Source of the DNA: Candidatus Heimdallarchaeum aukensis
GTDB taxonomy: Archaea > Asgardarchaeota > Heimdallarchaeia > Heimdallarchaeales > Heimdallarchaeaceae
Direction: 5' to 3'
NCBI GenBank assembly: GCA_021513695.1
Contig: CP084166.1
Location: forward strand, 2,976,001-3,040,000
DNA length: 64,000 bases
Shown here piece by piece: positions 930 through 34,573 of the stretch (the stretch's first letter is position 1; each line of letters opens with the position of its first letter). The position numbers and the translations under genes are program-made. The notes under the pieces were generated by a model. The model worked only from the letters and a program-made list of their open reading frames with translations, ran no database searches and was not told where the DNA came from.

Positions 930-2795
930 TCATCTTTTTTTTCTTCTTGAAACTAGAGAAACTCCAACAACTGAAAATATTACAACCAGAAATGTCCATC
1001 CAGGTAGATCAAATGTTATTGTAGTAGTTCCTGTTTCGGTGTCTTCATTGTTTTTTATCTCGAATGGTTTATCTGACATATCCTCGGCCATCAAACCATC
1101 TTCAGTCTGTGCTACAACCTTAATAAGATAATTTTCTCCGTCTTCAACTGTTGTTGTGTCCCACAAGAGTAAAGGAACAACAGCTCCTTCAGATAATAGA
1201 TTCCAGCTTATTCCTTTATCTCTAGAGTAGTAAACATCATAAATTATGTCTTTTCCAAAAGAATCTTTTGCTTCTATCCATTCTATCCTAGCTGTTCCTG
1301 ACAAGATCTCTCCCCCATTCGGACTCACGATTCTTGGTGGAATTAAGTAATGTTCTTGTGTTCTATTGTTTATTATTGTAATTATAGGGTAATAGTCAAA
1401 ATTGTTAGCTGAACCATCAATTAAATAAGGTTCGTCAGCAATATTGTCGTTATTTTCATCTTGATTGGAATGATCTGACCAGTAATTATTGCTAAAACTA
1501 TTGCTATTGCCATTGTCTGCTGCCTGAGAGAATCCGAATTCCTTACTATTATTTATAAAATCATTAAAATAGACGGTAATGTCACCTTGTTCATTTTCAT
1601 CAACAATTTGAAGACCTCTATCATCGGAATTTTGAATAACATTGTTAGAAATTGCAACATCTCCTGTATCAAATAATGATATACCTATTTTATTGTCAAC
1701 AATTATGTTATCAAAGATGGTAACATTATCGCAGTTAGAACCAAGATTTATAGCAGAACCACTTCCTTTCTCGTTACCCACATCTATTCCATTATTAAAC
1801 AGGAAATTATTGTAAATGAGCAGATTCTTAGCTTCATGGAATGACAAAGCAGAGAATGGATCTGGAGCACCTGACATTGTATTGTTGAAAATTGATGTTT
1901 CGCCGTTAGAATCAACAAGAACAAAACAGTCTTTTATGGGATCAATTATTATATTATTGTAAATTTTGATTAATCCTTGAATTGCATAGAACATTCCTGT
2001 TTCAGCATTTTGAACATAATTACCTTCAACTAAGGCATAGAACTCCTCTCTAGTATGGACTTCAATTCCATTGTATCCTGCGTTTGTAACATAATTATTC
2101 GAGACTTTGGAAACTAAAGTACGTGTTCCTCTGTTCCCAATTTTTTCTTTTATATTAGCTTTCTCTTCTATTTGTTCAAATTTATTATAATAGGCTGGAT
2201 GGCAAACAATTCCGCTTTCAGAGACATCATTTATTTTATTGTTGTTAATTGTTATATCTTCACAATCAACACTGTAAATACCAATTGAAGATTGTACTAT
2301 TGAACATTTTTCAATTACAATTTTATTACAATATTCAATGAGTATTCCTGCATTCTCTGTTTCAGAAGCAACTACATTAACTATCTTTGCATTTTCTAAA
2401 TTAGAGAATTTTATAGAGTGTTTTCCTCCTGAAATAGTGCAAGAGTCAATAATAAAGTATACCTCTGTATTAACAATGAATATCCCTATCTCATTTTCAG
2501 GAGTCGATATGTTTAATCCTGAAATAATAAAGGGATCCCCAGATGTTCCACTTCCTGACCAGCTTTCATTTTCTGCTTTGTTGATAAAGTCAACATCTCC
2601 ATTAATATAGATTGTAGAAGAAGAAAAAGAAATCTGCTCAATTGGACTATATGAACAGTTACTTTGATTATAATCAGCTGAAGAAAAGAAGATGCTACAA
2701 CAGAGAAATGAAACAGAAAAGAGTAAAACAAGTTCCAATTTAAGAATAGAAGAAAAAAAAAATTTTTTATTTTTATCTTTTTTTATTGATTTCAT
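930..2795 (-). CDS. secreted cell-surface protein with right-handed parallel beta-helix (pectin-lyase/NosD-like) repeats and a PGF-CTERM-like C-terminal anchor
   Basis: N-terminal signal peptide (MKSIKKDKNKKFFFSSILKLELVLLFSVSFLCCSIF). Repeated NxxI/VxNN...GI beta-helix repeats and many N-x-S/T sequons. C-terminus has a Thr-rich linker, then DLPGWTFLVVIFSVVGVSLVSRRKKR (PGW + TM + basic tail). Confidence 0.7.
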   Translation of the reverse strand: MKSIKKDKNKKFFFSSILKLELVLLFSVSFLCCSIFFSSADYNQSNCSYSPIEQISFSSSTIYINGDVDFINKAENESWSGSGTSGDPFIISGLNISTPENEIGIFIVNTEVYFIIDSCTISGGKHSIKFSNLENAKIVNVVASETENAGILIEYCNKIVIEKCSIVQSSIGIYSVDCEDITINNNKINDVSESGIVCHPAYYNKFEQIEEKANIKEKIGNRGTRTLVSKVSNNYVTNAGYNGIEVHTREEFYALVEGNYVQNAETGMFYAIQGLIKIYNNIIIDPIKDCFVLVDSNGETSIFNNTMSGAPDPFSALSFHEAKNLLIYNNFLFNNGIDVGNEKGSGSAINLGSNCDNVTIFDNIIVDNKIGISLFDTGDVAISNNVIQNSDDRGLQIVDENEQGDITVYFNDFINNSKEFGFSQAADNGNSNSFSNNYWSDHSNQDENNDNIADEPYLIDGSANNFDYYPIITIINNRTQEHYLIPPRIVSPNGGEILSGTARIEWIEAKDSFGKDIIYDVYYSRDKGISWNLLSEGAVVPLLLWDTTTVEDGENYLIKVVAQTEDGLMAEDMSDKPFEIKNNEDTETGTTTITFDLPGWTFLVVIFSVVGVSLVSRRKKR

Positions 2796-30865: not shown

Positions 30866-32044
30866 TTATTTCTTTTTCTGTTCTGCAAGTTTAGACTTTT
30901 CAGCTAATTCAGGTATTATTTGTAGGAAAGGTGCAATAGAGTTAGCGATTGTTGAAAAAGCATCTTCTTTAGAGCCTGTAATAATCATTTTATCAATTTC
31001 TAAGTTCTGGTAAATCTCTGGTAATCTTGCAATAATCATTTCTTGGAAGAAGCGACTATCTGCTTTTGCTAGAGCTTGTATTCTAGCTAATATACCTTCT
31101 GCTTCTGCTTTTCTAGCCTCTAAAATCATAGCAGCTTCACCTTTGGCTCTAGATTCAAGCTCAAATTGCTTTGCTGCTGCCATTCTACGGATTTTTTCAG
31201 CTTCAACGTCAACTTCTGAGGCAATTTTTCTGTATTTCTCTGCATTAGCTTCGATTTCAACCTTTGTTTGATAAGTTTTGGCTTCTACTTCTGTTCTTTT
31301 CTTTTCAAGTTCTTGGATTTTAATCTCTCTATCTTTTTGCTTAGTTTCAATGTCTAATTGTACTCCTTGTCTTTCCATTTCGACCTTTCGTTGAACTTCT
31401 AAGTCTCTAAGTTTAGTGGTTTCCTCCATATCTGCTTTCTTTAATCTGGCTAGTTTCTCCTGTTCAATTTTCATAATAGCGCTGACATTCTCCTTTAATT
31501 TAGGATCTATGATCTCTATTTCTCTAATTTCAACGCTTTCGATAATCAAACCCCAATCTCTTGTTAATGTGTGTAATTCTTTGACTACAGACTCAATTAT
31601 TGCTTGTCTGTCGCGTATTATTTTCTCTAGTTGCATGTTGGCAGTAACAGTTCGAATAATTGATTCTGTGGCGTTTTTGATTATATTTTCGACATAAGCA
31701 GGCGAGGACTGATCCCATACAACCCTAGCAAAAGCAACTTCAGGGTCAACAACTCTCCAAAAAACAAAAGCTGTTACTGATATCTCTTGAAATTCTCTAC
31801 TAACTACTTTTTCTTTTGCTTCCAAAAAAGTAGATTGTGTAGTTACTGGAATAGTTCTAATTTCGTCGATCAAAGGTAAAACAACAGCTTTTCCACCTTG
31901 TCCTGCTCTGATAACCTTTCCTCCACGAAAGTGAATGACGTAAAAACTAGTATCGAATTTACGATAACGTGACGCATAAAACATCAATCCAAGAACAATT
32001 AAAACGACTATTCCAATAATTAAATATACATACCATTCTGCCAT
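30866..32044 (-). CDS. SPFH/band-7 flotillin-like protein
   Basis: N-terminal TM, SPFH core, long Ala/Glu-rich coiled coil (EAEGILARIQALAKADS…). Confidence 0.8.
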   Translation of the reverse strand: MAEWYVYLIIGIVVLIVLGLMFYASRYRKFDTSFYVIHFRGGKVIRAGQGGKAVVLPLIDEIRTIPVTTQSTFLEAKEKVVSREFQEISVTAFVFWRVVDPEVAFARVVWDQSSPAYVENIIKNATESIIRTVTANMQLEKIIRDRQAIIESVVKELHTLTRDWGLIIESVEIREIEIIDPKLKENVSAIMKIEQEKLARLKKADMEETTKLRDLEVQRKVEMERQGVQLDIETKQKDREIKIQELEKKRTEVEAKTYQTKVEIEANAEKYRKIASEVDVEAEKIRRMAAAKQFELESRAKGEAAMILEARKAEAEGILARIQALAKADSRFFQEMIIARLPEIYQNLEIDKMIITGSKEDAFSTIANSIAPFLQIIPELAEKSKLAEQKKK

Positions 32045-32233
32045 TTTCTTTCTCCTCAGTTAGATTCAAGATGGATTTAGTAATACGCTTTTTTAAAGGT
32101 ATTCAAATGAAAATCACACATGAGGTTAAAAAAATAGAAAATTTAGTTTTTCACCATTTGTTAAAATAGCTTTAATGTTTATATTTTTTAACTTGATTTT
32201 ACTTTAGAAAGAAAGAAAAAAGAAAAATTAAAA

Positions 32234-32995
32234 TTATAAACTATCTACCAGATAAGTGTTGTTTTTGAAAGCTACAATCCTTACTTTTTCTCCTTTCTTG
32301 AATTTATCAAAAGGACTGAAAGTTTTAGCATGCAGTTTTGTTAAACCTATATTTTGCCCTAAATCAACGACAATTATTCCTCCTTTTACATCTACAGAAA
32401 CGAAAACCTCACCTATCTCCCCAACAAGCTGTTCTCCTTTTGGAACAATAATTGAAGTAGTAGCAGAAAGTTTTCTCCATGTTTTAGATAAAATCCAAGC
32501 TAAAAAGTAGGGAACAACAAAAACACTTACTATACGTACGATTCTTAAACTAAGATCATCAGAAGAAATTCGAAGTGTTGAAACCCCTAAAATACCAAAG
32601 ATTAGGAAATAGGTAGACATTAATAGGAATAAAGGAGCTGAAGAACGAGTAATATCAATACTTTCAACTACGGCTTTCGAAACTTTATGAGGGGTAAGAT
32701 CAGAGACGTCTCCACTTTCACTGCTGACTTCATGGTCACCTACATCATGATCTCCAATATCATGGCTCACATCATGTCCCCCTATGTCATGATCTCCTAC
32801 ATCATGGCTTATGTCATGCCCTCCAATATCATGATCTCCTATATCATGGCTTACATCGTGTCCTCCAAAAGCCTCTGTAATATTTTCAATGTTGAGAACA
32901 AATGAAAGAATTACTAACAATGCTCCACTAATTAATAAAGCTAAAGCTATATTCCATAGTATTGTTTCAAAATTAAGTAAAAATTCAGGATTCAA
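32234..32995 (-). CDS. NfeD-like membrane protein (SPFH partner) with His/Asp-rich pentapeptide repeat insertion
   Basis: TM helices plus C-terminal OB-fold (VGEIGEVFVSVDVKGGIIVVDLGQ…VRIVAFKNNTYLV). Upstream and co-oriented with the flotillin gene. Confidence 0.7.
   Translation of the reverse strand: MNPEFLLNFETILWNIALALLISGALLVILSFVLNIENITEAFGGHDVSHDIGDHDIGGHDISHDVGDHDIGGHDVSHDIGDHDVGDHEVSSESGDVSDLTPHKVSKAVVESIDITRSSAPLFLLMSTYFLIFGILGVSTLRISSDDLSLRIVRIVSVFVVPYFLAWILSKTWRKLSATTSIIVPKGEQLVGEIGEVFVSVDVKGGIIVVDLGQNIGLTKLHAKTFSPFDKFKKGEKVRIVAFKNNTYLVDSL
32705..32869 (-). repeat. about 10 tandem degenerate 15-nt units encoding an HD[IV][GS][DG] pentapeptide repeat inside the NfeD CDS
   Basis: Protein stretch GGHDVSHDIGDHDIGGHDISHDVGDHDIGGHDVSHDIGDHDVGDHEVS; DNA periodicity catgatctcctacatcatggc… visible. 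Confidence 0.6.
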
Positions 32996-33181
32996 TTTCT
33001 TCTTCCTCTTTTTCCTTTTCGATTAAAAATAGGACATGGTGATTTAAAAATCTTGATAAATAAATTCTATTAAAAATTAAAAACTAGTTTTTGAAAATCT
33101 ACAAAATGTAATAAAATAAAAAGGTACATTTGATAAATACAAAAATTTATCTTTAGAAAATAAAAGTTGGACTTGAAATAA

Positions 33182-34573
33182 TTGCGTTCTCTAAGTGTGT
33201 GCACAAAAATTTTGGAAGAGCAAGGAATAAACTATTCTATATACGAACTTGATTCTAAGTCGTTTAGCATAATAGACCCAAGAGTAAAAAAAAGAATAGA
33301 ACAAGTGAAACAAATAGCTGAGAGCTTGAATTGTGTAGTAGGAATAGTTGGTGGATTTATTCGAGACTTGTTATTAAAAAAACCGAGTAAAGATGTTGAT
33401 TTTGTAGTTATTGAAGGTGATTTAGAAAAATTAACAGAAGAAATTGCAAAAAAACTAAAGGCAAAAAAGGCTATAATTCATAACCAAACCTTAACTACGC
33501 AAATACGCTTCGGAGAAGGAATAGTATTTGAGTTTAATGCACCTAGAGTGGAAAGTTATGAGCCTTTGTCTCGCGTCCCAAAGGTAAGAAGAGGAACAAT
33601 AATAGATGATTTAACAAGGAGAGATTTCACTATCAATTCTTTTATACTTTTTGAAAACAAATACTTAGACATTTTTAACAGTAAAAAAGATCTTCTTGAA
33701 GGGATCATTAGAACTACAAGAGAACCATCAATTGTTTTCTCTGAAGATTACTTAAGAATATTTAGAGCAATAAGATTCGCATGTTTACTGGATTTTAAGA
33801 TAGAAGAGAAAACAAAGAAAGGAATAATAGAGAATGCACATCAGCTTAGTTTTGTAGCTAAAGAAAGAATAATTGAAGAGATAAGATTGACAGCTAAAAA
33901 GGATATAGTTTGCTGTTTCAAATTAATGACAGAACTGGCAATTATTCATACTCTTTTTCCTGAATTGAAAAACGAAAAAATAAATGATACTTACATAGTT
34001 TCTTTAAAATATGAAAAAATAGAGAAAGAGCTAGAACTTGTCAAACAACAAAAAGGGATAAACTATTTCCTTTGTTTTTTTGCTTTAGTAATGAAAGAAC
34101 AATTTATTGAAAAGGAAAATTATCTGGCAAAAATCAAAAATGAATTAAAAAAATTCAAGTTTTCAAAAAAAGAGATAGAAAAAATTTTGCTTATTATTAA
34201 ATATTCAAATACTCTAATACACCACATTTTTTATCCTGTTTCAAAAAAAGAATTAGGATTATTGTTAAGAGAAATATTTGAAATTAGAGAAGAAGTTATA
34301 GCTATAAATATTGCAGAAAACAAACTCTTAAAGAAGAAAAATAAAAATTTAGAAAAAATAATAGGCGATTTAAGAGAATTAAGTAAAGATAAAGAACTAA
34401 TTTTTATAAAACCTGCAGTAAATGGTAATGAACTAATGGAATTGGGAATAAAAAAAATGGAAATAAATCAATGTAAAGAATTTTTAATACATGCCTTGAT
34501 GGATGAGCAGCTAGAAAACACAAAGGAAGAATGTATTAAATATGTTAAAAGATATTATCTCCAGAAACGATAG
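33182..34573 (+). CDS. class II nucleotidyltransferase (bacterial/eukaryotic-type CCA-adding enzyme / poly(A) polymerase head domain) protein
   Basis: GIVGGFIRDLLL…DVDFVV (GGxxRD…DxD pol-beta NT motif), RRDFTINS motif; 463 aa. Confidence 0.7.
   Translation: MRSLSVCTKILEEQGINYSIYELDSKSFSIIDPRVKKRIEQVKQIAESLNCVVGIVGGFIRDLLLKKPSKDVDFVVIEGDLEKLTEEIAKKLKAKKAIIHNQTLTTQIRFGEGIVFEFNAPRVESYEPLSRVPKVRRGTIIDDLTRRDFTINSFILFENKYLDIFNSKKDLLEGIIRTTREPSIVFSEDYLRIFRAIRFACLLDFKIEEKTKKGIIENAHQLSFVAKERIIEEIRLTAKKDIVCCFKLMTELAIIHTLFPELKNEKINDTYIVSLKYEKIEKELELVKQQKGINYFLCFFALVMKEQFIEKENYLAKIKNELKKFKFSKKEIEKILLIIKYSNTLIHHIFYPVSKKELGLLLREIFEIREEVIAINIAENKLLKKKNKNLEKIIGDLRELSKDKELIFIKPAVNGNELMELGIKKMEINQCKEFLIHALMDEQLENTKEECIKYVKRYYLQKR

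Follow-up and report, generated by a model that had tools for sequence, protein, structure and literature searches.

The stretch of DNA considered here, called the window, comprises 64,000 nucleotides (nt) of the archaeal contig CP084166.1 with a G+C content of about 31%, and it carries on its minus strand a gene for an NfeD-like membrane protein with a dense tandem array of His-Asp units. The protein, of 253 amino acids (aa), is 100% identical to K9W45_13255 of Candidatus Heimdallarchaeum aukensis, whose genome is one of two circularized Heimdallarchaeum genomes (PMC8813620). A first-pass annotation, made from the sequence alone, had described the array as a repeat inserted into the partner of an SPFH protein, and had proposed that it serves in the sensing or storage of metals.

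The protein consists, in order, of a short acidic N-terminal tail, a first transmembrane (TM) helix, the His-Asp loop, a TM2-TM3 hairpin and a C-terminal OB domain (Table 1). An AlphaFold2 (AF2) model, built on an alignment of 16 sequences, has three long helices, with the boundaries given in Table 1, and a C-terminal barrel of five strands, which lie within residues 194-252 at a predicted local distance difference test score (pLDDT) of about 77-92. The arrangement of three TM helices and then an OB domain, as in NfeD proteins of the YqiJ/YuaF type, is present in the AF2 model, and the hydropathy profile also shows the TM helices. TM2 carries the family motif SAPxxLLxST.F..FG..G, with invariant columns at P121, L124, L125, L131, G134 and G137.

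The minus strand of 32705..32869 encodes residues 43-97, exactly the peptide that the first-pass annotation had quoted, and the core of the array within it reads GGHDVSHDIGDHDI / GGHDISHDVGDHDI / GGHDVSHDIGDHDV / GDHEVS. This is a 14-aa higher-order unit, GGHD[VI]SHD[IV]GDHD[IV], repeated three times and followed by GDHEVS, which brings the total to ten H-[DE] units. The array lies after the N-terminal TM segment, as had been stated, and more exactly between TM1 and TM2. Ten H-[DE] dipeptides in 48 aa compare with a maximum of two in any other 48-aa window among the 84 long open frames of the 64 kb, where the background amounts to 0.1 for every 48 aa; the density of the array is therefore far beyond chance. 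At the DNA level, Tandem Repeats Finder reports a period of 42 nt (3.0-3.5 copies, 81% matches, score 180) and a weaker period of 15 nt (8.3 copies, 67% matches, 10% indels, score 84). The array DNA is a degenerate 42-nt higher-order unit built of sub-units of 12, 15 and 15 nt, so that the 15-nt repeat of the first-pass annotation is an approximation of it. An open reading frame (ORF) antisense to the array is unlikely to be a real gene and is best taken as a by-product of the reverse complement of the repeat.

Table 1. Features of the NfeD-like gene and its surroundings, in coordinates of the window
Feature	Position	Strand	Description and basis
Gene for NfeD-like (YqiJ/YuaF-type) membrane protein	32234..32995	-	ORF, 253 aa, TTG start
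TM1	32888..32956	-	Residues ~14-36; mean Kyte-Doolittle 2.23; AF2 helix 3-44; both flanks without K/R
TM1-TM2 loop, whole	32642..32887	-	Residues 37-118 (82 aa); 21 D+E, 11 H, 3 K+R
Core His-Asp array	32723..32866	-	Residues 44-91; translation, Tandem Repeats Finder period 42, chance test, copy-number differences in L002/L003
TM2	32573..32641	-	Residues 119-141; AF2 helix 120-142; most conserved segment of the family
TM3	32486..32554	-	Residues ~148-170, then K/R cluster KTWRK; AF2 helix 148-180
C-terminal NfeD-type OB-fold beta barrel, putative SPFH-binding domain	32237..32440	-	Residues ~186-253; Pfam, PDB profile, Foldseek
Intergenic spacer, 189 nt	32045..32233	-	Read directly from sequence
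SPFH/Band-7 partner gene	30866..32044	-	392 aa; Pfam Band_7 E 8e-26
ORF antisense to array	32687..32905	+	72 aa, Y/I/M-rich; mirror image of repeat
Divergent upstream neighbor, CCA-enzyme-like	33182..34573	+	PolyA_pol head and RNA-binding domains

The NfeD-type identity of the protein is borne out most clearly by its fold. A Foldseek search of the PDB with the AF2 model matches the NfeD OB domain 3cp0 at E 5.9e-5 (target TM-score, TMt, 0.84; root-mean-square deviation, rmsd, 1.2 Å), the YbbJ chain of the QmcA-YbbJ cage (8z5g_AA) over 130 aligned columns at E 1e-4, and the C-terminal domain of Pyrococcus STOPP (3wwv) at TMt 0.75, with 2exd also among the matches. A family profile likewise matches 3cp0 at E 0.003. 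The Pfam NfeD family (PF01957) is found on residues 189-250 only below threshold (14.5 bits against a gathering cut-off of 29.1, E 0.043), and it matches six of the 12 orthologs, with a best E of 9e-4. The window protein has no match to Pfam YqiJ_N (PF21001) or YqiJ_OB (PF07290), YqiJ_N being found below threshold in three of the 12 orthologs (best E 0.072), and no family in the NCBIfam search matches the protein. The label of an NfeD-like SPFH partner is thus right at the level of fold and gene context, and the curated sequence thresholds are not reached.

The start of the gene deserves a separate remark. The TTG start codon sits after a purine-rich GAGG leader, and the Heimdallarchaeum endolithica ortholog has been annotated with an N-terminal extension, MSYFYSKRKKRKKK, that corresponds to window 32996..33040 on the minus strand (2656..2700 of the H. 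endolithica locus L004). It is probably a mis-called start that runs over a Shine-Dalgarno-like leader, since H. aukensis has an in-frame TAA in the same purine-rich leader and other orthologs begin where the TTG would fall.

The SPFH partner named in the first-pass annotation is present as a Band_7 gene, encoded on the same strand and starting 189 nt after the end of the NfeD-like gene. Its product has an N-terminal TM segment, the sequence SRYRK directly after it and a long C-terminal coiled-coil region; its best sequence matches in the PDB are QmcA (8z5g, 9e-13), stomatin and flotillin-1, and the NCBIfam search gives for it only a trivial match to the FloT coiled coil. The spacer between the genes begins, immediately after the NfeD-like stop codon, with an oligo-T-rich tract, TTTTAATTTTTCTTTTTTCTTTCTTTCT, and it contains a TTTAAAAA box and then GGAGG ahead of the SPFH ATG. 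Because of the box and the GGAGG the SPFH gene may have a promoter of its own, and the two genes may form separate or attenuated transcription units rather than a tight operon.

A scan of GTDB species genomes with a narrower alignment (A5), whose reach extends to Heimdall genomes only, recovered 18 Heimdall loci, and in 12 of these an SPFH homolog lies downstream of the NfeD-like gene; L003, a contig very close to the window, has the same arrangement. Four loci from species-level Heimdallarchaeota metagenome-assembled genomes (MAGs; L008, L009, L011 and L012) have no SPFH homolog within 3 kb on either side of the His-Asp NfeD-like gene, and one of them, L009, has downstream genes of the opposite strand whose products are large and either secreted or membrane-bound. 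In these four the partner may be encoded elsewhere, or their subclade may work without an SPFH partner. In L002, a second contig close to the window, the SPFH gene is present but is frameshifted by an 82-nt deletion in the coiled-coil part and is called as 280 + 57 aa. The deletion is at about 5820..5830 of L002 (window ~31120..31205), where nucleotide identity to the window rises from 96.4% to 99.7%, and it could be a real disrupted allele, a recombination breakpoint or a chimeric assembly join.

The relation of the array to the rest of the family emerged from a profile (A2) that covers TM2, TM3 and the OB domain only, the repeat being left out to avoid bias from it. A search of 1.84 billion representative proteins with this profile, at a cut-off of E <= 1e-3, returned 101 clusters that range from Asgard archaea (the named members are Sigyn-, Hel- and Loki/Promethearchaeota) to bacterial members of Pfam YqiJ_N, and in nearly all of them the TM1-TM2 segment is an acidic tandem repeat of the D-x-D type. 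Among the 64 full-length clusters the loop has a mean length of 74 aa (range 18-166) and contains on average 19.6 D+E, 8.3 His and 1.3 K+R, and it is acidic, with at least 20% acidic residues, in 56. By composition 34 of these loops are both His-rich and acidic, 11 are acidic with 3-10% His, and another 11 are acidic with less than 3% His. The sequences include DHDVDHDFDHD..., SGHDASGHDV... with 27 H[DE] units (P0068) and GHDHDHDMSGHDHDHD (P0073), as well as His-free loops of the kind DVDIDAEIDVDVD... (P0028, P0031, P0048, P0050, P0051 and P0062) and a few Gly/His loops nearly devoid of Asp (P0061 and P0064). The picture of an array inserted or grafted into an NfeD protein is therefore not borne out, since a profile blind to the repeat finds an acidic repeat loop at the same place in nearly all clusters; as judged from these comparisons, the acidic loop appears to be an ancestral, family-wide feature of the YqiJ-type branch. 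In the literature searched, no paper was found that discusses the TM1-TM2 loop.

The connection to the YqiJ type is a transitive one. The weak tail of the A2 search (E 1e-5 to 1e-3) contains proteins that clear the Pfam YqiJ_N threshold in their own right (E down to 5e-23), one of which also passes YqiJ_OB (2e-24), and these YqiJ_N proteins too carry loops of the form DADADxD. E. coli YqiJ itself retains the remnant LDAHLDHYD in its loop. A direct hhalign profile comparison with E. coli YqiJ is weak (E 0.012, probability 3.5%, OB part only), so the link rests on the transitive profile result, and the repeat-free profile connects the window protein only weakly to the YqiJ_N/YqiJ_OB proteins. 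The use of an acidic TM1-TM2 loop to recognize the YqiJ/YuaF type is an operational feature of this analysis rather than a curated one.

With that reservation, the YqiJ/YuaF branch of NfeD is the closest known family, in that architecture, context and acidic loop agree, with the weak profile link just described. YqiJ of E. coli and YuaF of B. subtilis (NfeD2) share with the window protein the three TM helices, the C-terminal OB barrel and the adjoining SPFH gene, and an acidic D-x-D-type TM1-TM2 loop is seen in the proteins that pass YqiJ_N. YqiJ/YuaF has been described as a three-TM protein encoded with Band-7/flotillin genes, in an operon type that is widespread in bacteria and archaea (PMC11237479), and these proteins have been treated as very divergent NfeD homologs (PMC2636767). 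The window protein differs from them in that its loop is 82 aa long, against some 30-35 aa (estimated by eye) in E. coli YqiJ, and is built of regular tandem units that are strongly enriched in His; furthermore, the sequence of its SPFH partner resembles QmcA and stomatin more closely than it does FloT or YqiK. YbbJ, a short NfeD protein that pairs with QmcA, resembles the window protein in its TM region and OB fold, which align to 8z5g_AA, and departs from it over the whole chain (TM-score 0.24-0.34, rmsd 7.7 Å). Between the TM helices of E. coli YbbJ, no long loop rich in acidic residues or His is known.

Segments rich in His and Asp that bind metals are found in HypB, in Hpn, in the central loop of RcnA, in the cytoplasmic loops of ZnT and ZIP transporters and in the loop of ZnuA. 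Like the array, these segments are flexible and have dense alternating His and Asp/Glu, and in the transporters they form a cytoplasmic loop between TM helices. The resemblance is one of composition only, however: the loop has no match in Pfam and no sequence similarity to any solved chain at E <= 10, the host here is a scaffold partner rather than a transporter or metallochaperone, each unit of the array has a conserved hydrophobic residue, and orthologs contain His-free equivalents. A snake-venom motif of this kind, VDHDHDH, binds Zn(II) (PMC9472272), and by analogy the chelation of transition metals by the array is chemically plausible.

Known repeat folds were also considered for the loop and rejected; no Pfam repeat family matches it. 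Positions 4, 6 and 8 of the RTX beta-roll nonapeptide (GGxGxDxUx) call for Gly, Asp and a hydrophobic residue, in that order, and at these positions the unit GGHDVSHDI of the related proteins P0002 and P0003 has D, S and D. There is no match to Pfam HemolysinCabind at E <= 10, and AF2 gives no beta structure in two array types. Both the DxDxDG calcium motif and the hexapeptide left-handed beta-helix were set aside on a consensus misfit seen by eye, on the lack of a Pfam repeat match and on the unstructured AF2 models.

The His content of the loop varies even among close relatives. In complete Heimdall genes the H[DE] units number 7-14 and mostly have the 6-aa form DHD[IVF][SA][IV], as against the 9- and 14-aa units of Heimdallarchaeum, with the exception of L006 (1..771 on contig CAZEQQ010000167.1, an uncultured archaeon MAG). 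This gene has a His-free array of about six copies of GVDADV[GS]ID, is 60% identical in the part from TM2 to the OB domain, and is followed by an SPFH gene. The consensus over 292 units is [DG]-H-D-[IVLF]-[SGD], with His residues spaced 4-6 residues apart and a hydrophobic residue retained at His+2 in about 73%. Acidic residues avoid adjacency in 46 of 62 family loops, and an i,i+2 spacing of acidic residues, that is, a period-2 amphipathic pattern, is significant (z > 3) in 17 of the 62, the window protein not being one of them. By these comparisons, the conserved properties of the loop are dispersed acidity, a near absence of K/R and repetitiveness, with His enrichment as a frequent but dispensable lineage flavor.

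The array is also variable in length within the species. Two metagenome contigs from the Joint Genome Institute (JGI), the L002 and L003 mentioned above, are 96-99.7% identical to the window in nucleotide sequence over about 9 kb. Outside the array, the gene differs in them by silent substitutions only, so the protein flanks are identical; within the array, in-frame indels of 12, 12 and 3 nt result in 12 units where the window has ten, and four near-perfect copies of a 27-nt unit are present as well. Comparison of copy number among relatives, proposed in the first-pass annotation, thus yields 10 versus 12 units in conspecific contigs and 7-14 between species (for instance seven in H. endolithica and 13 in another relative). 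The suggestion of a variable region prone to slipped-strand events holds insofar as length is concerned, but on/off phase variation can be ruled out, since all of the changes seen are multiples of three and alter the length of the loop rather than switching its expression.

The loop is predicted to be disordered, and it probably faces the cytoplasm. In the AF2 model the pLDDT falls below 50 for residues 39-117 of the window protein, and in two models with different array types (the window protein and its ortholog P0008) that of the loop is about 32-45. Across the family the count of K+R is 2.19 in the ten residues after TM3, as compared to 0.25 in the N-terminal tail and 0.06 after TM1. This cluster of K/R after TM3, together with the positive charges that the SPFH partner carries after its own TM segment, suggests that the C-terminus is in the cytoplasm, and with three TM helices the N-terminal tail would then be outside and the His-Asp loop inside. 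On the strength of this charge distribution, we think it probable that the loop is on the same side of the membrane as the OB domain and the SPFH cage; the QmcA-YbbJ cage, according to a summary that cites Tan et al. 2024, is built of 26 heterodimers and extends into the cytoplasm (PMC13086221). With about one K/R per ten residues in the short TM2-TM3 loop, the positive-inside signal is not clean, and strongly acidic loops can be translocated, which means that an outward-facing loop is possible.

The interpretation that we favor, by a modest balance of the evidence, is that NfeD proteins of the YqiJ/YuaF type share a hypervariable acidic TM1-TM2 loop of which the array is the His-Asp form found in Heimdall/Asgard archaea, and that the array acts as an ion-binding polyanionic brush at the SPFH cage. 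If the NfeD protein is stoichiometric with its SPFH partner, as in QmcA-YbbJ, each cage would hold some 20-26 copies of the loop, which together would bring several hundred side chains of His and Asp to a single patch of membrane. Such a flexible polyanionic brush would bind divalent cations multivalently, with His and Asp together taking Zn, Ni, Co, Fe or Cu and Asp alone taking Mg or Ca in the His-free relatives. A His-rich brush would also titrate near neutral pH, so that the NfeD/SPFH assembly would respond to both ions and pH in its charge, extension or packing. The repeat DNA, for its part, would let the length and composition of the loop drift fast through slippage or unequal recombination.

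Several observations weigh against this interpretation, in addition to the two reservations about membrane side. Every functional step in it (metal binding, pH response and topology) is inferred. Because four Heimdall loci have no SPFH gene within 3 kb, strict coupling to the cage is not universal. Nor can transition-metal chemistry be the core function that has been conserved, because His is dispensable in a close relative, the L006 gene with its His-free array. Finally, no metal transporter, regulator, metallochaperone or other metal-homeostasis gene lies within about 9 kb of the array gene, whose neighbors are oxoacid:ferredoxin oxidoreductase subunits, an HD hydrolase, a methyltransferase-like protein, a CCA-enzyme-like protein, a peptidase S9, TFIIB, an aminoacyl-tRNA synthetase and a radical SAM protein.

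Some of the same observations bear on the proposal of the first-pass annotation, a dedicated module for the sensing or storage of transition metals that resembles HypB, Hpn or the ZnT loops and was grafted onto an NfeD protein. A module of this kind would fit with ten H-D pairs in 48 aa, with the His-rich loops being the commonest class (34 of the 64 clusters), with the retention of His in 7-14 units across most Heimdall species, and with the Zn(II) binding of VDHDHDH (PMC9472272). We nevertheless consider it unlikely, because the loop is ancestral to the YqiJ-type family and so not a graft, because His-free arrays occur in a close relative with the same gene context (L006) and in the Loki-type P0028, P0031, P0048, P0050 and P0051, and because no gene for a metal transporter, regulator or metallochaperone is found nearby; the absence of any similarity between the loop and a solved chain counts against it as well. 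To about the same limited degree, one might entertain an entropic or electrostatic spacer, a disordered polyanion that fills volume, repels the anionic membrane or neighboring loops or sets the spacing of the cage, and that binds ions only incidentally. An acidic composition almost free of K/R that is conserved when the sequence is not, a length that ranges so widely across the family and drifts freely within a species, and the predicted disorder are all what one would expect of such a spacer. A plain bristle, however, needs less order than is seen in the hydrophobic residue at His+2 and in the non-random dispersal of acidic residues, and it leaves the repeated strong enrichment of His in many lineages to be explained.

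Two further explanations carry much less weight. The S. aureus FloA-NfeD pair is reported to stabilize unfolded proteins without ATP (PMC11222466), and by analogy the long, flexible and highly charged loop might act as a polyanionic holdase, helping to keep membrane proteins that are unfolded soluble at the SPFH/NfeD assembly. This seems improbable, since nothing in this analysis, which did not extend to the S. aureus NfeD sequence, connects the FloA-NfeD activity to a loop of this kind and no evidence here ties the loop to the binding of clients. Least credible of all is an artifact of assembly or annotation, or a non-coding repeat read as protein. Tandem repeats are indeed error-prone in short-read assemblies, and exact copy number needs the reads, but the contig that carries the gene is 3.08 Mb long and more than 25 independent assemblies have homologous arrays that are in frame, with length differences that are all multiples of three, flanks in which changes are silent only, and an antisense ORF that is a mere mirror image of the repeat. 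For the first-pass annotation, a repeat confined to this ortholog together with anomalies in read coverage would have pointed to such an artifact. Homologous arrays are found in independent assemblies of the same and related species: among 11 relatives recovered in a search with the full protein, all of them from Heimdall-, Hod- or Promethearchaeota-type assemblies, an H/D array stands at the same place in every one whose N-terminal half is present, down to 31% identity, which argues that the array is a conserved coding feature.

A side observation concerns the divergently transcribed neighbor at 33182..34573, whose domain layout is that of class II (bacterial/eukaryotic-type) CCA-adding enzymes. 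The gene also adjoins the NfeD-like gene in L002 (2423..3799), L003 (2043..3419) and L009 (1079..2509), so that its position is kept even at a locus without an SPFH gene. A bioRxiv preprint of 2026 that deals with the class II CCA-adding enzymes of Asgard archaea mentions H. aukensis.

To return to the polyanionic brush, a bolder version of it can be formulated, which we regard as speculative and rather doubtful: YqiJ-type loops in general would be the ion-responsive element of SPFH microdomains, with some 20-26 of them per cage forming a dense layer, bridged by cations or protons, under the enclosed membrane. If so, the bridged layer might turn beta-structured, as many members alternate acidic with hydrophobic or His residues; the period-2 pattern has its place only in this speculative version because it is not significant in the window protein. 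The layer would then be a pH- or metal-gated switch, or a local ion sink, that controls the assembly of the cage or access to the enclosed membrane, and its His-rich form in Asgard archaea would be adjusted to a pH near neutral or to transition metals. A feature overlooked in the literature searched would in that case provide a testable mechanism for the NfeD partners.

NfeD proteins that partner SPFH/flotillin-type cages occur widely, and what they do there is poorly understood. The present analysis indicates that one branch of NfeD, extending from bacterial YqiJ to the Asgard archaea, nearly always has a long polyanionic loop that evolves fast and in many cases is His-rich, and the array in H. 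aukensis is an expanded, regular and His-rich form of this existing but undescribed loop, a lineage variant rather than a new system. The loop is a concrete and mutable experimental handle on these partners. H. aukensis is a member of an Asgard clade that has been reported to be phylogenetically closest to eukaryotes (PMC8813620), which lends the array slightly more weight, since the eukaryotic flotillin, stomatin and prohibitin form similar cages.

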